DNA of 64,000 nucleotides. It comes from an uncultured Gammaproteobacteria bacterium. Lineage in GTDB: Bacteria; Patescibacteriota; Patescibacteriia; Magasanikbacterales; GWA2-37-8. This document shows, piece after piece, positions 6,504-59,872 of this stretch. Each line of letters opens with the position of its first letter. Position 1 is the first letter of the stretch. The notes below the pieces were generated by a model. It did not search any database and was not told the origin of the DNA. It saw nothing but the letters and a program-made list of their open reading frames with translations. A program made the translations under genes and the position numbers. The stretch lies in assembly GCA_964514995.1 (NCBI GenBank), contig CAZETA010000001.1, forward strand, positions 15,148 to 79,147, written 5' to 3'.

Positions 6504-7349
6504 ATGAAAAAATTATTTATTTTTTTAGGGGGAGTAGCAGTATTGCTGATTACCGTTGTCTTATTTAGAAAATTAGACAATACAGCACCGCCAATTTCTG
6601 ACAATAATCCGCCGCCAATTTTGGAAGATAATGTTGGTCTCGTAGTGGAAAATGTCCACACAAATGACTTACTTAGTTCACCGCTTAAAATCACCGGTTA
6701 TGTGAACGGTGGTGGGTGGGGCGGTTTTGAAGGTCAGGTAGGCACAGTCAGTCTTCAGGATAGTGCGGGTAATGAATTATATATTGAACCGCTCACGGCT
6801 ACGACTGAGTGGATGACAACCACGGTGCGTTTTGAAGCAAATTTGGAATACGTTACGCTTGATCAGTACGGTAAACTTATTTTTAGAAATGAAAACCCAA
6901 GCGGCGAGCCGTCTCGAGATAGAGAAGTGATGATAGAAGTACGACTAATACCCGCGGTCGGCATGTTAAAAGTGCAGTCTTATTTTAGTAACAGTCAGCT
7001 TGATCCGGAGGCAACTTGTGAAAAAGTTTTTCCAGTGGATAGGATTGTAGAAAAAACTAGCGCTGTAGGCAGGGTAGCTTTAGAAGAATTGTTAAAGGGG
7101 CCGAAGCAGATAGAAAAAGGTAAAGGTTATGAAACAAGTATCAACCCAGGAGTGCAAATAAATAGTCTTACAATTACAGGGGGTATAGCTAAGGTTGATT
7201 TCAATGACGCTTTGACTGCGGGAGTAGCCGGGTCATGTCGAGTGGGTATGATTCGTTTACAGATAGAGCAAACGCTCAAACAGTTCCCGACCGTAAAAAG
7301 TGTGGTGATTTCAGTAAACGGTAGAACAGAAGATATTTTACAGCCATGA
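6504..7349 (+). CDS. Membrane-anchored or secreted protein with a Gmad2 Ig-like segment and a GerMN-like C-terminal domain.
   Basis: N-terminal TM/signal segment (KKLFIFLGGVAVLLITVVLF). Motifs LKITGYVNGGGWGGFEGQV and C-terminal SCRVGMIRLQIEQTLKQFPTVKSVVISVNG. The stop overlaps the uvrC start by 4 nt. Confidence 0.45.
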   Translation: MKKLFIFLGGVAVLLITVVLFRKLDNTAPPISDNNPPPILEDNVGLVVENVHTNDLLSSPLKITGYVNGGGWGGFEGQVGTVSLQDSAGNELYIEPLTATTEWMTTTVRFEANLEYVTLDQYGKLIFRNENPSGEPSRDREVMIEVRLIPAVGMLKVQSYFSNSQLDPEATCEKVFPVDRIVEKTSAVGRVALEELLKGPKQIEKGKGYETSINPGVQINSLTITGGIAKVDFNDALTAGVAGSCRVGMIRLQIEQTLKQFPTVKSVVISVNGRTEDILQP

Positions 7350-8503
7350 GTCTGCAAGAAATAGCAAAACAATTTCCTTTAACCCCAGGGGTATATATCT
7401 GGCGAGATAAAAATCAAAAACCCCTGTATGTAGGCCGAGCAACTTCTTTGCGACGGCGGGTTTTGCAATACTTCAGAAAAGATATTGATCGGCGGATTGG
7501 TGAGATGGTTTCTTTGGCACAGTCGATTGAGTTTATTCAGACTGATACTGTCCTGGAAGCCATTATTCTGGAAGCAAACCTGATAAAGGAATATTGGCCA
7601 AAATACAATATTGAAGAGAAGGATGATAAGTCTTTTATTTTTTTTGTTATTCCGAAGACTGATTTTCCCAAGCCGTTTATGGTTCGGGGTAGAGAACTCA
7701 AAAATTTTCCAATTCCTGAAGATAGAGTATTTGGTCCTTACCAAAGTTATGCCACCCTAAAAACAGTGCTAAAAATTGTTCGTCGTATTTTCCCCTACAG
7801 CACCTGTAACCAAACAGGTAAAGCTTGTTTTGATTATCAAATCGGATTGTGTCCGGGAGTTTGTATGGGTGCTGTAAGTAAAAAAGATTATCAAAAAAAC
7901 ATCGCTAATTTATTGTTATTTTTCAGAGGCGAAAAAAATAAACTACTAAAGAAACTTTCCAAAGATAATCCTGAAGCCGCGTTGCATCTCAAACATATCC
8001 AGGATGTAAGTTTGATTTCCCGTGAAGATTTGAATATGAGCGGCAATTTTAATCGCATAGAAGGCTATGACATCTCGCATTTTGCGGGTAAGGAAGTATA
8101 TGGCTCAATGGTGGTTTTTACCAATGGCGAGCCTGATAATAAGGAATATAGATTGTTTAAGATAAAAACGGTGACTAATAACGACCTTGACGCGCTCAAG
8201 GAAATGCTCGAGCGCCGGCTGAAGCATACTGAATGGCCAAAGCCGGATTTAATCCTCATAGACGGTGGTAAGCCGCAGATAGACTATTTGCGCCCGCTCA
8301 TGGAGCAATATCAATTCAAGGCGCCATGGCTGGGACTGTCAAAATTAAATGGCGATCATTTGGTATTTCCTGCAGGAATAAAAAATGTGTTCAAAGACTT
8401 GGCAGAGACGATCAAGCGCACACTACAGCAGGTGCGGGATGAGGCACATCGGTTTGCTAATCGTGGGAGAAGCAGAGGATATTTTAATAGGAATTTAAGG
8501 TAG
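7346..8503 (+). CDS. uvrC: UvrC-like excinuclease subunit C. GIY-YIG plus RNase H-like endonuclease domain, with no C-terminal HhH.
   Basis: GVYIWRDKNQKPLYVGRATSLRRR is the GIY-YIG motif. IEGYDISHFAGKEVYGSMVVFTNGEPDNKEYRLFKIK matches the UvrC endonuclease domain. 385 aa with a clean stop. Confidence 0.75.
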   Translation: MSLQEIAKQFPLTPGVYIWRDKNQKPLYVGRATSLRRRVLQYFRKDIDRRIGEMVSLAQSIEFIQTDTVLEAIILEANLIKEYWPKYNIEEKDDKSFIFFVIPKTDFPKPFMVRGRELKNFPIPEDRVFGPYQSYATLKTVLKIVRRIFPYSTCNQTGKACFDYQIGLCPGVCMGAVSKKDYQKNIANLLLFFRGEKNKLLKKLSKDNPEAALHLKHIQDVSLISREDLNMSGNFNRIEGYDISHFAGKEVYGSMVVFTNGEPDNKEYRLFKIKTVTNNDLDALKEMLERRLKHTEWPKPDLILIDGGKPQIDYLRPLMEQYQFKAPWLGLSKLNGDHLVFPAGIKNVFKDLAETIKRTLQQVRDEAHRFANRGRSRGYFNRNLR

Positions 8504-8540: not shown

Positions 8541-8656
8541 TTGTCGATGTTTGTTCTTTGTAATTGGGTTTTGTATATATGGGCTTGGAATTTTAGAATA
8601 TTTAATAAAATATTTTGAGATTCTTAGCTCATCTAACACAAAAGAAAAAGGTGCCA

Positions 8657-8941
8657 ATGGACGAATTTAGAGCAAAGCTTGTCGAACTCTTTCCCGAGTG
8701 GGAGGATGCCATCCGGATGTGCGATGCGGGTGATGTTCCGGGTCTCCGCACAGCTCTTCGTGATGCTACCTATCCAGGCGGTATGAGCGGCGACACCATG
8801 CTGAAAATGGTGGCAGCAGGCCATCCATATCGCGCTATTCGGGACGAGCACCTGCGAATCAAGGGGAAAGGCCCGCAGCTTGAGGCTTTGCGGAGGATGT
8901 TCGATGATCGTTTTCCGCCCCAATGGTCCTCCGGCTACTAG
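8657..8941 (+). CDS. Hypothetical 94-aa protein encoded in a GC-rich islet.
   Basis: aaaggtg RBS 5 nt upstream of the ATG. The ORF sequence is protein-like (MDEFRAKLVELFPEWEDAIRMCDAGDVPGLRTALRDATYPGG...). Local GC content is visibly far above the flanks. Confidence 0.35.
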   Translation: MDEFRAKLVELFPEWEDAIRMCDAGDVPGLRTALRDATYPGGMSGDTMLKMVAAGHPYRAIRDEHLRIKGKGPQLEALRRMFDDRFPPQWSSGY

Positions 8942-38300: not shown

Positions 38301-38788
38301 CTACAAAGAAAAAAATTACCCGTAGTGGCAAAGCGATGATGTTTGTAAAAATTTTGGATACCACTAGCAGTTTGGAGTTATTGGTCTTTCCAAAAACCTA
38401 CGAAACCACAGCCGATGTCTGGGTGGAAGGCAGGCCTGTGTGTGTGATTGGTCGTACTTCGGAGGAAGAAGGAGATGATAAATTGTTTGTAGAAAAGGCC
38501 TACGTACTAGGCAAAGATAATGTCGGTATGCTGGCACATCAGCTGTCTATGGGGAAAAGCGCAGCACCTGTAAAAGAATCTCCGCAAGAAAAATTGCTTG
38601 ATACATTTGATATCTTCTTAACGCAAGAGCAAATAAAAAATAATGCCGAGGTGATCAAGCAAATATTGGCAAAATATCCAGGAGAAAAGAAGGTGGTTTT
38701 GCGTGTCGGAGAAAAAAGTATCAACACTTCCTTTGTCGTTTCTGGCGAACCTGGCTTAGAAGAAGAATTGAGAACAATTATTGAGTAG
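35315..38788 (+). CDS. dnaE: DNA polymerase III alpha subunit.
   Basis: PHP domain (HLHNHSHYSLLD), polymerase core, OB fold. The true start may be the ATG at 35324 (MSDFVHLHNHS). Confidence 0.9.
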   Translation: MKTMSDFVHLHNHSHYSLLDALPKVDELVGRAKKLGYTALALTDHGNMYGAIEFYEACQKEGIKPIIGVEVYIAAGSHLEKNREENTYHLVLLALNYAGYKNLMKLISISQLEGFTDKPRVDKELLKQYHEGVVALSGCLEGEIPWILRKEDNYAKSKKVALEYQDIFGIGNFYLEMMDLPALEGQMDVNTKLAQLSAETGIPLIVTRDTHYLEPQDAEAQDVLTCIRDGQTLENDSRNSMSAVDYSFCAPKDIISRFKHIPQAIENTVKLAERVDLKLELNKWHFPDIKIPDGKTADEYLREQVYEKLPKRIEMTEEVKKRADYELDIIAKKGYSPYFLTVADYINYARDNGIMVTTRGSAAGSVVSFAMGIVMDNPLYFKLPFERFLNPFRPSPPDIDGDFADDRRDEMIAYVTKKYGADKVAQIITFGTMAARGAVRDVGRALGYSYSFCDQISKLIPFGAQGFQMTIAKALTLEPELKKLYDKNAEVKRLLDLAQKVEGCARHTSIHAAGVVISPTPLTDFTPVQLETGGDKTVTQYEMHAVEAAGVLKMDFLGIRNLSILGNAIEIIEKTTGQKINVYNLYPWNDKKTYEMLARGETVGVFQMSSSGMTRYLKELKPSSIFDIMAMVALFRPGPMDSIPSYIERQQNPQTIEYEDPRMKDYLDQSLGLIVYQDDVLLTAINLAGYNWEEADKFRKAMGKKIPEEMAKQKEKFYKGAKEFGKLSQEKIDRLWERIEPFAAYGFNKAHAASYAVVAYQTAYLKANFPVQYMTAVLIAESGDIDKVPEIIHECERMGVKVLPPDINESFKSFAMIPGTEGEQAHIRFGLNGIKNLGENIAEAIYRERKANGKYKDLQDLLTRVTDKDLNKKSIESLIKCGALDGFGHDRGVLLANIDNLLSFVKQTRDDRQVSSQHSLFSGTSIDTVVKLKLAEAVNATEAEKLTWEKELLGLYITSHPFSFYQEQMKAALVPLKDLSSQARNQWVVVGGMIDSTKKKITRSGKAMMFVKILDTTSSLELLVFPKTYETTADVWVEGRPVCVIGRTSEEEGDDKLFVEKAYVLGKDNVGMLAHQLSMGKSAAPVKESPQEKLLDTFDIFLTQEQIKNNAEVIKQILAKYPGEKKVVLRVGEKSINTSFVVSGEPGLEEELRTIIE

Positions 38789-39917
38789 TATCTACTTTCC
38801 AATTTGGGTCAACCATAATTTTTTCCCAAGCAGTGAATTCTTTTTTGAGAGCATGATTATAGCTGGCCGCCGCGATCATAGCGCCGTTATCCATGGCATA
38901 TTTTAATTCTGGAATTTGTACACTCATCTCAGGAAATCTGGCATTGATTTCTTTTTGTAAAGTTTCGCGAAGTTTTTTATTGGCACTGACACCGCCGCCA
39001 AGAATGACGGTTTTTGGTTTATACTCTTCCGCGGCTTTGATGGTTTTTGTGACCAGCACATCAATTATGGTCTGTTCAAAGCTGGCGCAAAAATCATTGA
39101 TTGAAACGCCACCGGTTGTTTGGTTGTCATTCTGAGGGAGAGAATCGACCGAAGAATCCCTTTCGTTTGTGTTTAAGGGATCCTTCGCGTTGCTCAGGAT
39201 GACGCCAGAAATTTGATTGTCCCGCAACCAATACAGTGCCGAAGTTTTCAGTCCCGAAAAACTAAAGTTATAATCGCCGCTATCAAGCATGGGGCGAGGG
39301 AAGTGGATGGCTTTGGTATTTCCTTCCAGAGCTAATTTGGATATTTGCGGTCCGCCTGGATACGGAAGTCCAAGGAGTTTGGCAACTTTATCAAAACATT
39401 CTCCGGCCGCATCGTCTCTGGTTGAGCCAAGAATTTTATACTGGCCATGATTCTTCATTAGAATTAATTCCGTATGTCCGCCACTGACGATCAGAGCGAG
39501 AGCGGGAAATTGTATTGCAGGTTGAACAAGTTTTGCATTTTCTAATTGAGGGTTTACCACTTGGGTTGAATAGATATGTCCCTCGATATGGTTGGTGGCC
39601 ACCAGCGGTATATTCCAGGCATAAGAGAGGGTGCGAGCAGCTTCTACACCAACAAGTAATCCGGTAATGAGTCCCGGTCCGGCAGTCACCGCAATCACGT
39701 CTGGCCGCGGTTGATTCTCAAGGACTGCTTCAATAAGCGGTACTATTTTTTCCGCATGCATACGGCCGGCGATTTCCGGTACCACGCCGCCATATTTTTT
39801 GTGCACATCAATTTGGGAGGCGGTTTTTTCTGACACCACAAAAAATCCATTATCAGAACAGTCTAATAAGGCCACGGATGTATCGTCACAGGATGATTCG
39901 ATGCCGAGAATTAACAT
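38778..39917 (-). CDS. tsaD: tRNA N6-adenosine threonylcarbamoyltransferase TsaD, carrying an about 30-aa in-frame insertion.
   Basis: ILGIESSCDDTSVAL N-terminus, HMEGH metal site, and GGVSAN near the C-terminus. Confidence 0.85.
   Translation of the reverse strand: MLILGIESSCDDTSVALLDCSDNGFFVVSEKTASQIDVHKKYGGVVPEIAGRMHAEKIVPLIEAVLENQPRPDVIAVTAGPGLITGLLVGVEAARTLSYAWNIPLVATNHIEGHIYSTQVVNPQLENAKLVQPAIQFPALALIVSGGHTELILMKNHGQYKILGSTRDDAAGECFDKVAKLLGLPYPGGPQISKLALEGNTKAIHFPRPMLDSGDYNFSFSGLKTSALYWLRDNQISGVILSNAKDPLNTNERDSSVDSLPQNDNQTTGGVSINDFCASFEQTIIDVLVTKTIKAAEEYKPKTVILGGGVSANKKLRETLQKEINARFPEMSVQIPELKYAMDNGAMIAAASYNHALKKEFTAWEKIMVDPNWKVDTTQ
39126..39203. repeat. Imperfect 78-nt palindromic element inside the tsaD coding sequence.
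   Basis: Outer arms gtcattctgag / ctcaggatgac (11 bp, one G-U). Inner arms gaagaatccctt / aagggatccttc (11 of 12). 12-nt central loop. Confidence 0.5.
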
Positions 39918-39964
39918 AATTCTAATGCCATATCTATCCTGGCTATTTTAGAATTGTATGGCTG

Positions 39965-40036
39965 TAGCCCCAACGGGAATCGAACCCGTGTTACCACATT
40001 GAAAGCGTGGTGTCCTAGCCACTAGACGATGAGGCC
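39965..40036 (-). tRNA. tRNA-Glu (anticodon UUC).
   Basis: The reverse complement GGCCTCATCGTCTAGTGGCTAGGACACCACGCTTTCAATGTGGTAACACGGGTTCGATTCCCGTTGGGGCTA folds as a cloverleaf with anticodon loop CTTTCAA. CCA is not encoded. Confidence 0.75.
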
Positions 40037-40132: not shown

Positions 40133-40206
40133 TGTCAGGGTAGCTCAGTTGGTTAGAGCACGGGATTCATAACCCCGAGGTCGAGAGTTCGAATCTCTCC
40201 CCTGAC
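40133..40206 (+). tRNA. tRNA with CAU anticodon (elongator Met or lysidine-type Ile2).
   Basis: GTCAGGGTAGCTCAGTTGGTTAGAGCACGGGATTCATAACCCCGAGGTCGAGAGTTCGAATCTCTCCCCTGACA. Perfect acceptor and T stems, anticodon loop TTCATAA. G1-C72 paired, so not initiator-like. Confidence 0.8.
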
Positions 40207-40245
40207 ACAGTTGTCAAAAACCGCCATTTATTTTAATAATTTCTA

Positions 40246-40281
40246 TAAAAAACCAACTAAATCTACAATGGTTGGTTTTTT
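40246..40281 (+). terminator. Rho-independent terminator after the tRNA.
   Basis: aaaaaccaac taaatctacaat ggttggtttttt. Confidence 0.6.
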
Positions 40282-40648
40282 ATATATTCTTTAGGTTGCT
40301 AGATAGTTAACTTCGTTAAAACGGAGTTTACGAATAAGTGAATAAATGCACTTTGATACTACTATCAAGCAGGGGATTTGCCAAGAGGTTTGACTAGTTG
40401 AAATATGGTTAAATATGCAACTCTATTGACAAATTAGTGTTTTTATGATATAGTAATTCGATTACTTTAACTTAAAGTAAGGAAAAAATAGACGTGCTAA
40501 GAAGTAACAATTGCCCTTCCCACATAGAGAGTAGTGTTCTAAGCTAATAATACTCTTTAGCTGGGAGGAGCGATAAACCACCGTCTGTTTGTTGGCCTGC
40601 TGGGCTGGCAAAGATGATGGAGAAGCAACTCAAAGGAGGATTGATTCC

Positions 40649-40879
40649 ATGAGCACGCCCAGTAAGCCCCCGGTGGTCGCGGCGATGCCGGTCACCGACG
40701 AGATGTCCCACGGACCCGACCGCGGTCGGGATGCCGAGTTCCCGACCGACAAGCTGCCGCCCTTCGACTGGTCGAAGGTGGAGTACGACCGCTGGATCGA
40801 GCGGCGCGGCCCGCGTTGCTCGACGTGCGGCGGGACGCTGGGGCATGACCGCCCCTTCAGCAGCAACTGCAGCTGCTGA
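40649..40879 (+). CDS. Hypothetical 76-aa Cys-motif protein (possible zinc ribbon) in a GC-rich islet.
   Basis: ggagga RBS 8 nt upstream of the ATG. C-terminal C..C...14..C.C motif (CSTCGG....NCSC). Local GC content is far above the flanks. Confidence 0.35.
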   Translation: MSTPSKPPVVAAMPVTDEMSHGPDRGRDAEFPTDKLPPFDWSKVEYDRWIERRGPRCSTCGGTLGHDRPFSSNCSC

Positions 40880-40985
40880 CCATGTTTCGGGCCAGTTGGC
40901 TGCAAAGCTGACTGGACTGGAACTAAAGCGTAGGCAGATCGACGACGACTCGGCCGCACCGTGCGACCGCGGCGGCTCACAGACA

Positions 40986-41048
40986 CTTCATCCGAGCCGT
41001 TCGCACAACCTAATAATATTATTGTTACGTTGTGTGAGCTCGGATGAA
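40986..41048 (+). other. Long hairpin with a 12-bp outer stem (cttcatccgagc / gctcggatgaag), an inner cacaac/gttgtg stem and an AT-rich loop. It ends the GC-rich islet.
   Basis: Inverted repeat read directly from the sequence. Confidence 0.5.
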
Positions 41049-41061
41049 GATATTACATTTA

Positions 41062-41095
41062 AAAACAGTCTTTCTTTTTGGGAAGGCTGTTTTTA
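41062..41095. terminator. Weak terminator-like hairpin flanked by A- and T-runs, possibly bidirectional.
   Basis: aaaaacagtctttc...ggaaggctgttttt. Confidence 0.35.
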
Positions 41096-41205
41096 GTTAA
41101 TGTGTAGGCTGACGTATAAAAAACAAACCCCACCAGCAATGGGGTATGTCATATTTAACAACAAACAGCTCTTATACTGACGTTTTAGCAGTTATACGGA
41201 TTGAA

Positions 41206-41442
41206 CTATAGGGGATTGCCAAAGTTATCCCATGGTCCAAACTCTTCTTTCCACAGTCTTCTGAGATAGGCAATTAAAATCACAGTGCCAATCACACCCA
41301 GACCAATATGGATAGAGTAGAGGGCAATAACCACAATAATGATTAATACCCATTTTATAATCCACTCCGGATAATTAGTGATCATAGTATATATAGAAGC
41401 AATAAATCGACCTTTGCTTATATTTATAAGACAAATAGTCAA
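41206..41442 (-). CDS. Small hypothetical membrane protein (78 aa, two TM helices).
   Basis: Hydrophobic core WVLIIIVVIALYSIHIGLGVIGTVILIAYL. Confidence 0.4.
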   Translation of the reverse strand: MTICLINISKGRFIASIYTMITNYPEWIIKWVLIIIVVIALYSIHIGLGVIGTVILIAYLRRLWKEEFGPWDNFGNPL

Positions 41443-41445
41443 AAA

Positions 41446-41835
41446 TCAGAAATGGAGCAACCTATTAAAGTCTTTGCCTCCCTTATACTGGTACTTGTGT
41501 AGTAGGGTGTCTTTTATTGCCTGAGTACAAGATAACTTTCCGTAGGCATCAACCCATGTGCTGATCGTTTTAGAATCAATGACATACATATTTTTATCAG
41601 GCGGTATCAGAATAAAATAATAGTTTTCTCGTGGCTCAAACTTTCCGACATTAAAGATCCATCTCGGTAGCCTGCCTTTTATCTGAATATCTATATGCCT
41701 GCCATCTTGTTGTCGGATAATACAATCAATGCCTTTGTCATCTACTATCGGAACATAGACATCAAAATTATGGCTCAATAGCTCTGATACAACTCTATAC
41801 TCACACGATTTTCCAAATGATAATGATTCTGGCAT
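41446..41835 (-). CDS. Small candidate PD-(D/E)xK-fold nuclease-like protein (130 aa).
   Basis: Ordered E (GKSCEYRVVSELL) ... D (FDVYVPIVDDKGIDCII) ... QxK (HIDIQIKG) pattern, as in Hjc/Mrr-type small nucleases. The start is placed at the second Met because the upstream in-frame codons cover a highly structured region. Confidence 0.4.
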   Translation of the reverse strand: MPESLSFGKSCEYRVVSELLSHNFDVYVPIVDDKGIDCIIRQQDGRHIDIQIKGRLPRWIFNVGKFEPRENYYFILIPPDKNMYVIDSKTISTWVDAYGKLSCTQAIKDTLLHKYQYKGGKDFNRLLHF

Positions 41836-41856
41836 ACAAACAAAAACGGCCCCTTT

Positions 41857-41950
41857 ATCCGGGCGGCAACCTTTCGGTCGCCCTACCACCTTTCGGAGGT
41901 AGACTACGTCAGCAGAACCCGGTCAAAAAGACCGTTTTACTGACGTAGAT
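41857..41950 (-). other. Structured leader-like region: two adjacent hairpins with cc-tttc-gg loops, then a 9-bp TGACGT-containing stem enclosing a smaller hairpin.
   Basis: gggcggc aacctttcg gtcgccc; ctaccacc tttc ggaggtag; ctacgtcag ...cggtc aaaaa gaccg... ctgacgtag. Confidence 0.4.
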
Positions 41951-42199
41951 TTGATGACCATGCCTTAGGTTGCCCTAAAGTTTAGGTCGCTAATTGTACC
42001 GACTTATAAAAGTCGATTTCATTTTAACATACAGGAAAAATAAAGCCAATGTAGCGATATGCACAAGCTACAATCGACTCTAAACCGACGAAATCGATGC
42101 CGTATATCGTCGATTAGTGTAAACATAGAGAAATTTACTTGCTGAGATTAATAGTTTGAGTTATGGTAAGCTTAATTCAGCTTTTCTATAATTAAATTA

Positions 42200-43114
42200 G
42201 TGCGATTTATGAAAAAGATTAGAGTTTGTTATAGAAGTAATAATAAGATCACTCCTTTATTTATAATAGGCTACTACTCAGATGGCGGATTTTTTATTAA
42301 GGATTTAATAAAAAGTTACGGTGAGAATTATCTAGTATCGAAAACCTCTATTCCGAGAAATTTAAAACCTGCTGAATTTACTAATTCCAAAATTAATAAA
42401 AAAAATACTTGGCACACAAGTTTTATTAAGCCAAAGTTTTCACATCATGGTAATGGGTTTGCTCAGATATCTGAAACCGGTCTCAGGAGTGGTGTTTTTA
42501 AGACGGTAGGATTTTTTAAAGGGGTTGCTATTAAGAGTATAAATTTATTTTTACGCAATAACGATGGCGGCCCTCTTTACGCATTTAATATTTGGGGTCT
42601 TGATAATATGGAGTTTAACCAAGATGTAAAAGGGGACGATATCATCTTAGATGACGCGGACTTTTTTGATTTTAGGCCTCCTTATACAAATACTCCAGGT
42701 TGTTTTATATTCGAATTTTTCTATCTTCCTAATCAAGCAAAAGGTCACATAAATAAAGATGGTAGAATATGGCTTCGTTGGGACGGGTATGGTGACTATA
42801 TTGCCAGGTATATACCTGAAGAGGAGTATAGTCCAGGGTTTCTAGCAATCTCATGTAAAAAAGATGTGCTCGGGAGTGGGTTTAATCAATGGCCGTTTGG
42901 TCTATCTATGAGCGGTTGTCCGGGGTTTCCTCGTCTATTAGATTTTTTTCGTTCTTATAAGCAAATAAATGTTATCTACCCTGTACGATCTTTTGGTAGT
43001 GAAGTACCTTTTAATGCGAGAGAATTATTATTTACAAAGTTTTGGCACACAGTTTCTATTCTAGATGATCGAGTTTCAAAAATAATTAATGCATTGGTTG
43101 CAAAAATTAAATAG
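42200..43114 (+). CDS. Hypothetical protein (304 aa), island gene.
   Basis: Clean ORF with a TATAAT box about 15 nt upstream. No recognisable motif. Very AT-rich codon usage. Confidence 0.45.
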   Translation: MRFMKKIRVCYRSNNKITPLFIIGYYSDGGFFIKDLIKSYGENYLVSKTSIPRNLKPAEFTNSKINKKNTWHTSFIKPKFSHHGNGFAQISETGLRSGVFKTVGFFKGVAIKSINLFLRNNDGGPLYAFNIWGLDNMEFNQDVKGDDIILDDADFFDFRPPYTNTPGCFIFEFFYLPNQAKGHINKDGRIWLRWDGYGDYIARYIPEEEYSPGFLAISCKKDVLGSGFNQWPFGLSMSGCPGFPRLLDFFRSYKQINVIYPVRSFGSEVPFNARELLFTKFWHTVSILDDRVSKIINALVAKIK

Positions 43115-43123
43115 TTTTATAAT

Positions 43124-44071
43124 ATGCAATTGTCTATTCGGTATATAGATACGAACATTAAAAGGTATGATGGCTTTCATAAAGGCACCTCTTCTTTATG
43201 GGGTGTAAGATTAGCGAAAGGTTACGGGGTATTACCTATAAAGCACGAGCATGATCTAAATCCACAAAATAAAAATTTTGATTATTCTGATAAACAGATT
43301 GCACTAGCAAAAAATATCAGAATAGGTTTATATCAAAGAATACTACAGCCAGATGATATAAAGAAAGCGTTGTATTATAGTCCAGTTACTCTAGAATTTG
43401 AAATATTTAGTTCTATATATACCGACCACGACGGTGTAATTTCTATGCCAGATCTTGAGGAGGATAAAAAAGAAGAATTAGCACACGCTGTTATGGTATA
43501 TGGACACGATAAGAATGGCTATAAGATATTCAATCATTGGGCTAATTGGGGCAATAATGGTAAGGGGTATGTTTCCTTAGATTATTTAAAAAAGTACTTT
43601 ATTACGGCATTTGCATCTGATCTTGTGATAAAGATGCATGACACTCGTTTATGTTTAGAAAAGAAAAAGGTCAGGATAAAAAACCTAGACTATTACTTTT
43701 CATTTTATGAGACCCCTTCTTTTTTGGGTGACCATAAACCTATTTTTAATATTGAGATTTCTGATAGTAAAAATGAATTAGCGGGTTGGATACATTTTAT
43801 ATTTAACAATGACAGTGTAGAAATTTTAGACATTTTTGTTCTAGCTGAGTTTAGACATAATGGGCTTGGTTCTTTTTTGCTAAATAAGATGATTGAATAT
43901 ACAAAGCCTAAAAATGTTACTGGTTTCATTTCCGGCTATGATCTAGTAAATGATAGAGATGAGATTGTAAAGGATTTCCTAATAAAGAATGGTTTTACAA
44001 TAGCCCGTGATACTAGTGGATTTAGGGATTGTAAATATAAAATTTTAAAAATAGATAATTGTAAATGGTAG
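43124..44071 (+). CDS. Fusion of an N-terminal papain-like (C1-like) domain with a C-terminal GNAT acetyltransferase fold.
   Basis: HAVMVYGHDKNGYKIFNHWANWGNNGKGYVSLDY matches the C1 His / Asn-Ser-Trp-Gly..Trp-Gly..Gly-Tyr region. The N-terminal KGTSSLWGV sits where QGxCGSCWAF is expected, but without Cys. C-terminal FRHNGLGSFLLNKM is a GNAT motif A. Confidence 0.5.
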   Translation: MQLSIRYIDTNIKRYDGFHKGTSSLWGVRLAKGYGVLPIKHEHDLNPQNKNFDYSDKQIALAKNIRIGLYQRILQPDDIKKALYYSPVTLEFEIFSSIYTDHDGVISMPDLEEDKKEELAHAVMVYGHDKNGYKIFNHWANWGNNGKGYVSLDYLKKYFITAFASDLVIKMHDTRLCLEKKKVRIKNLDYYFSFYETPSFLGDHKPIFNIEISDSKNELAGWIHFIFNNDSVEILDIFVLAEFRHNGLGSFLLNKMIEYTKPKNVTGFISGYDLVNDRDEIVKDFLIKNGFTIARDTSGFRDCKYKILKIDNCKW

Positions 44072-44166
44072 GTCAAAGTTTACCACTCGTAATCAGTGGT
44101 TCATAAATTACCTTGCAAAACCTGCATCTATCTGTCATCATATGTATGTAATGATGATATAAATAT

Positions 44167-44631
44167 ATGCTCGATCGATCAAGAGTTACACATACGGTAG
44201 GGGAAACCATTGTGGAGCCAAAAATACCCAAAGAGATTACAAAACATATAGACTTCAGCTTAAATGTTGACGCGCCTCATTTTGAACCTGGTGATATAGC
44301 CAGACAGATTGAAGAACTTGCCGTAGCAGATGGCCTTTCTCGTACTGATTTTGAATATATACAGAATGAATTTGATGAGGGAAATAATCTAATTTCTTTG
44401 TCTGCAGTAGTTAAATCTAGTGCTGCTAAACGGCAGAACTGTGGAGAGATTGTATATAGGTATATGGTTGAAGGAGATCATGGTGAAGATTGGGGAGTTA
44501 TAAATCATACTTGTATTTTCAGGTTTTCATCAAAAGTAGAGACGCCTGATGAAATGACAGATATAGAGATTATCTTGGTGTACGATTCGAAAAGAAAGGT
44601 ATGGGTAAAAAAAGGCCAAAGCTTGCAGTAA
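44167..44631 (+). CDS. Hypothetical protein (154 aa), island gene.
   Basis: Clean ORF. No recognisable motif. Confidence 0.45.
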   Translation: MLDRSRVTHTVGETIVEPKIPKEITKHIDFSLNVDAPHFEPGDIARQIEELAVADGLSRTDFEYIQNEFDEGNNLISLSAVVKSSAAKRQNCGEIVYRYMVEGDHGEDWGVINHTCIFRFSSKVETPDEMTDIEIILVYDSKRKVWVKKGQSLQ

Positions 44632-44716
44632 AAAAGTTTGCCACCTGTCTCGATTAAGCCTACAATATAATTAAAAGTACTCAAAAACTATCAAATTGTA
44701 CTTCTTAACTAAAAAA

Positions 44717-44741
44717 GCCCTTCTTCATCAGAAGGAGTTTG
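44717..44741 (+). terminator. Weak terminator-like hairpin closing the island.
   Basis: ccttct tcatc agaagg then agttt. Confidence 0.3.
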
Positions 44742-44805
44742 GTGTGTATTTTACTTGCGTTAGTAATTTCGATATAATTTAAAAGTGAGTATCTATTACC
44801 ATACT

Positions 44806-59548: not shown

Positions 59549-59872
59549 ATGAGCCAGCAACAAGGGCTTGTGAACAAGTTCAGGCGGGTGGTCATCATAC
59601 GACTTCACGCGAGTGGCAGGATCGCCATCTACATCGATGATGGTGAAGAAGACATCCGCAAGAGAGCGCAGGAGGAGGGGGGGACCTGGGACTGCCTGGG
59701 TCACTTCCTGATCAACTGGGGCCGCTACTCTTCGGCTTCATCAGTGGAGCTTCTGCTGAATGCGATCAGTGGACTAGACTCTAGCGGCTTGTTCGAGGGA
59801 TGGCTGCTGGTGCTGTTGGGCGATCTCGCCAATTGGATGGTGGATTTGAAGGTGGGGATGGACGACGAGTAG
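59549..59872 (+). CDS. Hypothetical 107-aa protein in a GC-rich islet.
   Basis: aagga RBS 7 nt upstream of the ATG. The GC-rich segment contrasts with the flanks. An antisense ORF (59492-59704) also exists, so the strand is uncertain. Confidence 0.3.
   Translation: MSQQQGLVNKFRRVVIIRLHASGRIAIYIDDGEEDIRKRAQEEGGTWDCLGHFLINWGRYSSASSVELLLNAISGLDSSGLFEGWLLVLLGDLANWMVDLKVGMDDE

Follow-up and report, generated by a model that had tools for sequence, protein, structure and literature searches.

The locus examined here raises the question of what kind of DNA lies between a pair of tRNA genes and an ordinary dehydrogenase gene in the genome of a Candidatus Magasanikbacteria bacterium (Candidate Phyla Radiation (CPR)/Patescibacteria). 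The window, i.e. the whole 64-kb stretch of this genome that was analysed, contains at 40.2–44.7 kb six open reading frames (ORFs), which a preliminary description had taken for a tRNA-adjacent accessory island and a candidate defence or toxin module. We find that this region is genuinely an accessory island, located at a hypervariable spot next to tRNA-Glu and tRNA-Met, and that it is not a coherent defence or toxin module. Instead, it is probably a mosaic, the core of which is the decayed remnant of an integrative mobile element marked by the structured RNA LOOT (RF03000). The LOOT copy of the window, at 41865–41988 on the minus strand, had been overlooked in the earlier list of features. 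Contigs used for comparison are labelled L001–L229.

The core of the island is best understood by its alignment with L001, which comes from a relative whose TsaD and DnaE are 77% and 78% identical to those of the window. Beside the same tRNAs and TsaD, L001 carries a region of at least 17 kb with a homolog of the island nuclease, an AAA_25 ATPase and two serine recombinases, arranged in the order LOOT, nuclease, 225-aa gene, AAA_25 ATPase, short and large serine recombinase, tRNA-Glu, tRNA-Met and TsaD. In the DNA alignment, window segments 42175–41582, 41194–41105 and 40388–40313 match L001 9666–10554 in this order. The identity is 79% between window 41582–42175 and L001 9666–10242, and 75% between window 41105–41194 and L001 10386–10476; the rest of the island has no DNA match to L001. 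The third segment is a backbone stump that corresponds to the promoter region of the gene following the nuclease in L001. No gene comes after this stump in the window, where the sequence runs into the terminator of tRNA-Met. The differences between the LOOT copies of the window and L001 are compensatory changes that keep the base pairs. AAA_25 and the short and large serine recombinases are absent from the window, which retains the LOOT-nuclease unit and the stump. Because these backbone genes are missing, we file the window as a remnant of the element and not as one of its members. We infer that the downstream part of the backbone was lost from the window rather than gained in L001.

The arrangement seen in L001 recurs in two further contigs. 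In L227 and L228, helix-turn-helix (HTH) and M78-peptidase regulators are followed by LOOT and the nuclease, a protein of ~240 aa and AAA_25, and L227 additionally contains two recombinases. Compared to their L001 counterparts, the AAA_25 proteins are 35–39% identical, the short recombinase is 64% identical and the large one 43%. The backbone of the element consists of (i) the HTH/M78 regulators, (ii) LOOT and the nuclease, (iii) variable small genes, (iv) the ~240-aa protein, (v) AAA_25, and (vi) a short and a large serine recombinase. As its position is repeated in L001, L227 and L228, the LOOT-led nuclease is a backbone gene of this element family. The slot just downstream of the nuclease is variable: it is occupied by a Macro-domain gene in L227 (4278–4892) and by an ADP-ribosylglycohydrolase gene in L228 (3095–4006), which hints at a function of the slot genes in counter-defence or in the reversal of ADP-ribosylation.

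The accessory status of the region follows from its surroundings and composition. From 29 to 40 kb, the window is syntenic with L039, L006, L008, L007 and L001 in a translated comparison, and this synteny ends exactly at the tRNA pair. In a panel of 80 related genomes with loci centred on TsaD, the island ORFs were sought at distances of up to 10 kb from this gene, and none of the 80 carries any of the six. The genomes nearest by TsaD identity are L039 (79%) and L006 (73%), and the TsaD relatives identify the organism of the window as a member of Candidatus Magasanikbacteria. The GC minimum of the 64 kb is formed by the 1-kb windows at 41.5–44.5 kb, which have a GC content of 0.31–0.36 compared to a mean of 0.42 (standard deviation 0.032); the z-scores of the island windows are −2 to −3.4. 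The GC content at third codon positions (GC3) is 0.26–0.29 in the three plus-strand island genes and 0.36–0.47 in other genes. The synteny break at the tRNAs, the absence of the island genes from the 80 relatives and the atypical GC content together confirm an accessory island.

Much of what had been described at this site is borne out by these data. ARAGORN and Rfam place both tRNA-Glu and tRNA-CAU beside the island, all six ORFs are present on both strands, and the switch in gene content downstream of the tRNAs exceeds chance and is evident in synteny, in the relatives and in GC content alike. The anticipated presence/absence polymorphism was also found, with none of the six genes in the 80 relatives and a full element beside the tRNAs in L001. 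The gene at the far end is an ordinary dehydrogenase (2-Hacid_dh), as had been stated. The right boundary proposed near 44.7 kb is upheld in part. It agrees with the composition, in which the promoter cassette at 44629–44737 forms the right edge of the island and the dehydrogenase looks native (GC3 of 0.38), but the dehydrogenase, GDSL lipase and acyltransferase to the right of the island are likewise not found near TsaD in the 80 relatives. Since these flanking genes are also non-syntenic, the boundary is one of composition only.

The mechanism of mobility, previously called unclear, is largely explained by the island being a recombinase-less remnant. No recombinase domain was detected in the six island ORFs by a Pfam scan, and no serine recombinase was found in the 64 kb by tblastn with the 470-aa large serine recombinase of L001 as a query, in agreement with the earlier remark that no integrase was seen. 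The reported lack of an att duplication also holds: the tRNA region and the sequence from 40.3 to 50 kb share only one AT-only word of 11 nt or longer. The same word comparison shows no repetition of the tRNA 3′ end near the far boundary (~44.7 kb), where a direct repeat had been put forward as a possible trace of integration, and neither tRNA end has a copy in the region. Classical tRNA-targeting islands carry tyrosine integrases and have the tRNA 3′ end duplicated, and neither feature was found in the window. The island resembles tRNA-linked islands and integrative elements with large serine recombinases in its location beside tRNAs, its presence/absence polymorphism and its foreign composition, and L001 holds serine recombinases at the same site. 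Unlike them, the window has neither a recombinase nor att repeats.

The tRNA-Glu/tRNA-Met pair itself is inverted relative to TsaD when compared to L001, L039, L006 and L008, in all of which tRNA-Met abuts the TsaD start codon. The breakpoints of this inversion hug the pair, and no inverted repeats flanking it were found, the candidates for such repeats being only a similarity between promoters.

The window copy of LOOT covers positions 1–121 of the Rfam model, and a covariance model of our own gives it 139 bits. It contains four hairpins, two of which have GAAA loops, and a CCUAAAC/GCAUGG internal loop, which may be akin to the 11-nt GAAA-tetraloop receptor; the fold z-score is −6.9. The ATG of the nuclease gene is located 30 nt beyond the LOOT 3′ end. 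With a promoter upstream and a terminator downstream, LOOT, the nuclease ORF and a doubtful 78-aa ORF form one minus-strand transcription unit. The 78-aa ORF belongs to no family and has no DNA or protein match in any of the compared loci, and it is uncertain whether it is a real gene.

A pattern scan for LOOT elsewhere gave four true copies among viral contigs and, among those from metagenomes, at least 120. Essentially all of them were confirmed by a covariance model based on three LOOT copies, which also set them apart from chance matches to group I introns. The statistics given here rest on 126 copies among the matches listed. In 85 copies, 95.4% of the cells pair and 37 of the 41 pairs change on both sides; the covariation, in an alignment fitted to the model, is 0.78 as compared to 0.18 in shuffles and 0.05–0.08 with slid partners. 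In 90 of the 106 copies with room for it, an ORF of 100 aa or more in the same orientation begins no further than 150 nt from the LOOT 3′ end, but this is so in only 34 of 104 in a mirrored control (Fisher p = 6e-15).

The genes downstream of LOOT are diverse, with more than 100 unrelated ones. They include about eight DNA methyltransferase or restriction-modification (R-M) genes, four genes of trypsin-like peptidases, genes of zinc-ribbon membrane proteins, YceG, FemAB and numerous membrane or secreted proteins that lack annotation. The nuclease family of the window follows LOOT in 3 of 84 first copies, or in 5 of 126 copies when L227 and L228 are counted. That LOOT might be a dedicated partner of the nuclease, such as a guide or antitoxin RNA, was rejected because 120 environmental loci show unrelated downstream genes.

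The conserved region extends beyond the 3′ limit of RF03000. Of 119 copies, 81 have a G-box followed by a U-tract after LOOT (median offset 6 nt), compared to 0 of 123 in an upstream control. This extension reads GCUGGCGG(G/C)G(A/G)GCUUU(U/G)UGUUU (e.g. in L148, L115, L164, L162 and L102), and the LOOT tail often lies within a covarying stem (CTGGCGG/CCGCCAG, CGTGAGG/CCTCACG, CTGGACAC/GTGTCCAG). As an ATG follows directly in some loci, the G-box may serve as a ribosome-binding site.

Furthermore, LOOT is associated with large serine recombinases. Homologs of these enzymes are encoded in 38 of 123 LOOT loci, and in 18 of the 35 loci that are at least 8 kb long, compared to 0 of the 80 TsaD-centred control loci (1.23 Mb), in which LOOT is absent as well. 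The recombinase gene is upstream of LOOT in 33 of the 38 loci, being divergent in 27 and on the same strand in 6. In L138, L111, L214, L202, L139 and L215, the stop codon of a co-oriented large serine recombinase gene is followed by LOOT at a distance of 45–82 nt, and it is possible, given this proximity, that the attachment-site end of these elements is at or close to LOOT. The three viral contigs that bear the four viral LOOT copies all carry a large serine recombinase.

One of these viral contigs, the 40.7-kb IMGVR_UViG_3300025323_000435, contains two LOOT copies (L090 2419–2538 and L099 7852–7981), which precede the genes of a 369-aa protein with a D...ExK motif and of a 594-aa protein that is HsdR_N-like by motif. 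One A9 member, probably this 594-aa protein, has HSDR_N_2, N6_Mtase and Eco57I domains. The LOOT pattern also matched viral group I introns (L087 8321–8664 and L093 3323–3666), probably through a shared tetraloop-receptor-like motif and GAAA loops. L093 also carries two twister-sister ribozymes (65–136 and 445–516).

In Weinberg et al. 2017 (PMC5737381) and in the article on Rfam 14 (PMC7779021), LOOT is described simply as a structured RNA from metagenomes, and its gene context is not given there, although the 2017 supplement may say more. The window copy matches the full model of RF03000, the helices of which are supported by covariation. Whereas Rfam files RF03000 as a stand-alone metagenomic small RNA, the copies described here form 5′ leaders, extend into the G-box and U-tract and are linked to serine recombinases. 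We tentatively suggest, on balance with less confidence than doubt, that LOOT could be a cis-acting leader of undescribed serine-recombinase elements and phages of CPR-type bacteria, rather than a free-standing small RNA. In these, a compact fold stabilised by the tetraloop-receptor motif, placed 5′ of cargo and early genes and succeeded by the G-box and U-tract, would control the amounts of the products, the nuclease among them.

The nuclease encoded after LOOT in the window belongs to a rare family that comprises 13 proteins among 5.8 billion clusters. It has the catalytic core of the PD-(D/E)xK type (E12, D32/D33/D37 and Q51-x-K53), and E12, D32/D33, G-I-D37-C-I-I and Q51-I-K53 are invariant or nearly so. 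The E...D...QxK pattern noted previously is thus sound, but the protein is 129 aa in length from its ATG (41446–41835) and not 130 aa. Two methods of structure comparison give the homing endonuclease I-Ssp6803I (PDB 2OST) as the closest fold. Hjc resolvases and restriction enzymes are nearly as close, and there is a likeness in fold to the SPARDA effector nuclease and to methyl-directed restriction enzymes as well. I-Ssp6803I is a small tetrameric PD-(D/E)xK homing enzyme with Hjc and R.PvuII as its nearest structures (PMC3384342). The window nuclease is 12–14% identical to it and scores 15.7 bits with PF11645 (PDDEXK_5), under the cut-off of 26.1. In contrast to I-Ssp6803I, its gene lies outside any intron and its family is a fixed gene of a recombinase-bearing element. 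A precomputed PF11645 match exists for 2 of the 13 homologs, of which the match of P0004 is marked faint. A link between the family and I-Ssp6803I at the level of sequence profiles was discarded, as the profile does not reach 2OST and the similarity is found by fold comparison only. Because the sequence link is weak, we describe the nuclease as I-Ssp6803I-like in fold and not as a homing endonuclease. Archaeal and viral Hjc Holliday junction resolvases have a lower structural score than I-Ssp6803I and no sequence-level match to the window nuclease.

LOOT is found directly 5′ of the nuclease gene in five independent loci (the window, L001, L004, L227 and L228), and the most distant members of the family, in L005 and L229, are without LOOT. 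The most divergent LOOT-nuclease pair, in L004 (4376–9794), is located beside HTH, reverse-transcriptase-like, RNase H and two SLFN_AlbA_2 genes, surroundings reminiscent of a defence island.

The fold of the nuclease suggests another origin for the unit, namely that LOOT and the nuclease constitute a free-standing homing-endonuclease cassette of ~0.9 kb, which cuts a specific site, possibly in or near the tRNAs, and is copied by repair. I-Ssp6803I, the best structural match of the nuclease by two methods, is encoded in a tRNA-fMet intron. The window and L001 have the unit in common as a discrete block with unrelated flanks, its neighbourhood in L004 is unrelated, and in the window it is ~100 nt away from tRNA-Met (CAU) once the insertion described below is discounted. 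However, Rfam shows no group I or group II intron or other intron family at 39.5–45 kb even at E ≤ 1, there is no intein, and the tRNA-Glu and tRNA-Met genes are both uninterrupted. In addition, the nuclease occupies a fixed backbone position in L001, L227 and L228, it is 7 kb away from the tRNAs in L001, Hjc resolvases and restriction enzymes rival I-Ssp6803I in fold similarity, and the PDDEXK_5 score is below threshold. A homing cassette is an unlikely source of the unit, and we retain a remnant of the LOOT-marked integrative element as its explanation.

Table 1 Features of the island and its flanks in the window, with strand and supporting evidence.
Feature	Position	Strand	Evidence and remarks
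TsaD	38778–39917	−	Left of the tRNA pair; DnaE is also on the left
tRNA-Glu (UUC)	39964–40036	−	ARAGORN; Rfam tRNA, 61.6 bits; left edge of the variable region
tRNA-Met (CAU)	40134–40208	+	ARAGORN, Rfam
Two-way terminator after tRNA-Met	40244–40284		Repeat search; perfect 14-bp hairpin flanked by T and A runs
Backbone stump, 77 nt	40313–40388	−	Promoter region (TTGGCA-17-TAGTAT) of the L001 post-nuclease gene; 84% identical to L001 10478–10554
Insertion splitting the backbone stump, 716 bp	40389–41104	+	Flanks contiguous in L001 (10476/10478)
Promoter of the insertion	40426–40454	+	Promoter scan; TTGACA-17-TATAGT, near-consensus
GC-rich ORFan, 76 aa	40649–40879	+	CxxC...CxC
Long hairpin, 60 nt	40988–41047		3′ of the 76-aa ORF; followed by a terminator-like hairpin and T run
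3′ flank of the nuclease unit	41105–41194	−	Terminator scan; intrinsic terminator (stem 41145–41127 and T run)
ORF, 78 aa	41206–41442	−	Two hydrophobic segments; directly after the nuclease gene
PD-(D/E)xK nuclease, 129 aa from ATG	41446–41835	−	
LOOT tail	41836–41864	−	Fold; 4-bp hairpin (GCCC/GGGC) with a G-rich Shine-Dalgarno-like box, then UUUUUGUUUGU, ATG
LOOT RNA (RF03000)	41865–41988	−	Rfam, 84.1 bits (gathering threshold 46.4); 5′ leader of the nuclease mRNA
LOOT-nuclease promoter region	41989–42175	−	Promoter scan, fold; TTGGCT-17-TAAAAT at 42049–42021, small 5′ hairpin; conserved with L001
ORFan, 301/304 aa, first of trio	42200–43114	+	ATG at 42209; GC3 0.26
Cys-less papain-like and GNAT fusion, 315 aa	43124–44071	+	
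ORFan, 154 aa, last of trio	44167–44631	+	
Promoter cassette, ~100 nt	44629–44737	+	Promoter scan; TTGCCA-17-TACAAT at 44638–44666, hairpin end; faces the dehydrogenase
2-Hacid_dh dehydrogenase	44785/44806–45816		Ordinary family member

The remaining parts of the island (Table 1) differ in origin from its core. The 716-bp insertion has no target duplication and no terminal repeats. The 76-aa ORF within it is preceded by a strong Shine-Dalgarno sequence, its GC content at the first, second and third codon positions is 0.58, 0.60 and 0.91, and this periodicity coincides with the start and end of the ORF. As the GC3 signal is bounded by the ORF, the latter is truly coding, and its codon bias is that of a high-GC genome. 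The preliminary description had noted this GC-rich ORF, which is indeed coding, but omitted that it lies in an insertion (40389–41104). An exhaustive HMMER search of 1.84 billion representatives returned the 76-aa protein itself and one spurious match, the low-complexity repeat protein P0023, which was dismissed as a homolog; tblastn gave no match to the protein in phages or plasmids, and the insertion has no DNA match in plasmid and phage collections. A structured RNA was rejected as the cause of the GC-rich patch, which has no Rfam match at E ≤ 1 and shows a GC3 periodicity (0.87–0.97) that fits the 76-aa frame. An integron cassette was rejected too, its GTTRRRY core being a misfit to the junctions as judged by eye. 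Two more small GC-rich ORFs are located at ~8654–8941 and 59549–59872 (GC content of 0.54 and 0.56, GC3 up to 0.74), each in an AT-rich intergenic setting and followed by a strong hairpin; neither has a Pfam family or a match in the compared loci. Counting the 76-aa ORF, there are three such GC-rich minigenes in the 64 kb.

The low-GC trio on the other side of the LOOT promoter begins and ends with an ORFan. The 301/304-aa protein, correctly described as having no recognisable motif, matched only itself in a word-indexed search of 5.8 billion clusters, and it has no family in Pfam, PHROGs, PADLOC or NCBIfam and no phage match. The 154-aa protein is a singleton at the level of 90%-identity clusters and has no family or phage match, no wide homolog search having been run for it.

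The middle gene of the trio encodes a fusion protein of which six full-length homologs were found, so that the family has seven members. Its reading as a papain-like domain fused to a GNAT is corroborated by PF00583, a PDB profile search and Foldseek, although the catalytic Cys is missing in all seven members. The GNAT half (residues ~200–315) scores 32.9 bits with PF00583 as compared to a threshold of 20.7 and carries an RxxGxG motif with invariant R244, G247 and G249. Foldseek, run on a structure model of modest quality (predicted local distance difference test score, pLDDT, of 61.7), returned many GNATs at ~1e-5 and also 3ois. The structure comparison recommended earlier was thus informative for two proteins, the nuclease with its I-Ssp6803I-like fold and this GNAT/3ois-like fusion, and covers these two.

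The papain-like domain (residues ~1–160) contains HAVxVYGH and NxWxNWGxxGxG motifs and matches the peptidase family phrog_16701. In the PDB profile search, residues 54–156 align to the His/Asn half of papain enzymes, such as xylellain (2.5e-5), cathepsins K and L, ervatamin and Der p 1. The nucleophile site reads K-G-[ST]-S-[ST]-L-W in 7/7 members, there is no invariant Cys in the domain, and Pfam gives no Peptidase_C1 match in the fusion. The N-terminal domain is papain-like in fold, and its peptidase activity is uncertain. Like the papain C1 peptidases (xylellain), it keeps the His and the Asn/Trp motifs and aligns to the R-domain, but it has no nucleophile Cys and a strongly reduced N-terminal half of the papain fold. 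The second domain passes the Pfam threshold and keeps RxxGxG in the manner of RimI/NatD-like GNAT acetyltransferases. Unlike in C1 peptidases and GNATs at large, the two domains are fused, and this is so in only seven known members.

Homologs of the fusion gene occur in diverse surroundings. In L225, it adjoins a Shedu SduA_C gene; in L223 and L224, it adjoins DUF3800, DUF4238, a large serine recombinase, a Type ISP R-M enzyme and DruA; and in L222 it is near a serine recombinase, an SNase gene, a ParB-methyltransferase and another LOOT. The immediate neighbours in L222–L226 have no homology to the 304-aa and 154-aa proteins of the window, which excludes the latter as conserved partners of the fusion. 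The fusion gene appears to move alone through unrelated neighbourhoods. In L225, two small PD-(D/E)xK-like ORFs (6907–7377 and 7448–7957) are located 0.6–1.1 kb downstream of the fusion homolog, by SduA_C, and one of them is a distant relative of the window nuclease family (E of 4.7e-5 in a small search).

The ~100-nt cassette at the right edge of the island is an element-type promoter. As a repeat (44629–44735), it had been a candidate for an att or attC-like site, a reading set aside because the repeat is a promoter of the sigma-70 type with further copies upstream of genes. Copies are found upstream of accessory genes in L001 (246–347, 1695–1769, 3269–3333 and 4531–4634) and, in a weaker form, in L039 (3344–3377, 5945–5983, 7011–7043 and 7770–7836). 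The cassette recurs in the tRNA-side variable regions of three related genomes, in which it has a conserved downstream sequence and sometimes a hairpin.

The suggested scan with defence profiles gave nothing significant for the six proteins: the best match in PADLOC-DB 2.0 is PDC-S01 (E of 0.0034, 14 bits) for the nuclease, and there is none for the other five. In the absence of a meaningful PADLOC match, the defence reading is reduced to an association for the fusion gene. The likeness to defence islands consists in the neighbours of the fusion homologs, which include Shedu, Type ISP R-M with DruA, DUF4238, SNase and serine recombinases, but the window contains no recognised defence gene and the link runs via other genomes. 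Of the original designation, the tRNA-adjacent accessory island stands and the single defence or toxin module does not, in view of the PADLOC result and the independent histories of the parts.

It is conceivable, but very improbable, that the six genes nevertheless constitute one new defence or toxin-immunity system, in which the nuclease would be the effector and the others its partners. Such a system would account for genes that are adjacent, accessory and compositionally foreign, and it could draw on the company of the fusion homologs (SduA_C, Type ISP R-M with DruA, DUF4238 and SNase), on the distant nuclease relative located 1 kb from the fusion gene in L225, and on the resemblance of the nuclease fold to the SPARDA effector and to methyl-directed restriction enzymes. 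It is contradicted by the lack of a PADLOC match of note and by the organisation of the genes, which occupy both strands and form three or more transcription units. In other loci, no pair of the six genes is found together, save in the weak case of L225, and three of the proteins have no homologs in the searches that were run. Moreover, the GC-rich ORF was inserted later, and the nuclease gene belongs to the fixed backbone of a mobile element and not to its variable cargo.

We attach equally little probability to the absence of any mobile element, i.e. to a fast-evolving, lineage-specific stretch that resembles L001 because one gene has a common ancestor in both. The window contains no recombinase, att site or transposase, and the dehydrogenase, lipase and acyltransferase on the right are non-syntenic yet native-looking, as this scenario would have it. 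Nevertheless, the block shared with L001 ends inside an intergenic promoter whose downstream gene is missing, the relatives of the nuclease are situated in recombinase-bearing backbones, LOOT is common next to recombinases while being absent from all of the controls, and the compositional deviation is strong. Finally, a type III-like toxin-antitoxin pair, in which excess LOOT RNA would neutralise the nuclease, is scarcely credible: the succession of promoter, structured RNA, hairpin with U-tract and ORF is shared by ToxIN-type loci and the LOOT-nuclease pairing is conserved in five loci, but LOOT precedes more than 100 unrelated genes (of membrane proteins, methyltransferases and peptidases, for example), is followed by this nuclease family in only 5/126 copies, and is a single copy per locus and not a tandem array, and the nuclease fold is of the DNase type and not that of an RNA-processing toxin.

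For the remnant of the LOOT-marked element, we propose the following history and mode of action. The genes for replication and recombination, comprising the ~240-aa gene, AAA_25 and the recombinases, would have been deleted from an ancestral element, leaving an immobile remnant in which the LOOT-nuclease unit survived with its own promoter and terminator and with 77 nt of the next promoter. The GC-rich 716-bp minigene would later have been inserted into this stump, and the low-GC block of three genes would have been acquired separately, beyond the LOOT promoter. As the 5′ leader of the nuclease mRNA, LOOT is predicted to fold compactly and, with its G-box/U-tract tail, might set the amount of the nuclease. 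The nuclease itself may be a DNA endonuclease for the element's own DNA, engaged in junction resolution or site-specific cutting rather than in host defence. The fusion gene would be an independently mobile single gene that may act in phage conflict.

Several points weigh against this interpretation. The term integrative element is suggested by L001-type gene content, and the att sites and ends are not defined. The low-GC trio is without a counterpart in related elements and could have come by another route. The intact nuclease ORF, its promoter and LOOT fit selection or self-mobility at least as well as decay. The control loci, being centred on a housekeeping gene, may under-represent mobile DNA, and among the LOOT loci the host lineage is assigned only for the window, L001 and the TsaD loci.

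The island itself is ordinary, a recombinase-less mobile-element remnant with orphan genes at a tRNA hot spot, and its significance lies in its components. The high-GC coding orphan inside a 40%-GC CPR genome is unexplained foreign DNA, the source of which, if traced, might reveal associated organisms. The Cys-less papain-like/GNAT fusion, which recurs in defence neighbourhoods, is a candidate single-gene conflict factor, and the small nuclease family with its 13 members is now placed as a backbone gene of serine-recombinase elements. If LOOT is indeed a cis-acting leader of such elements, the window would hold a still-functional piece of a LOOT-marked element, and the location of LOOT beside the recombinase gene might reflect the neighbourhood of the attachment site. 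In CPR bacteria, whose mobile elements and gene regulation are poorly known, LOOT, an orphan RNA until now, gains a testable context as a 5′ leader of diverse genes that is strongly linked to large serine recombinases.

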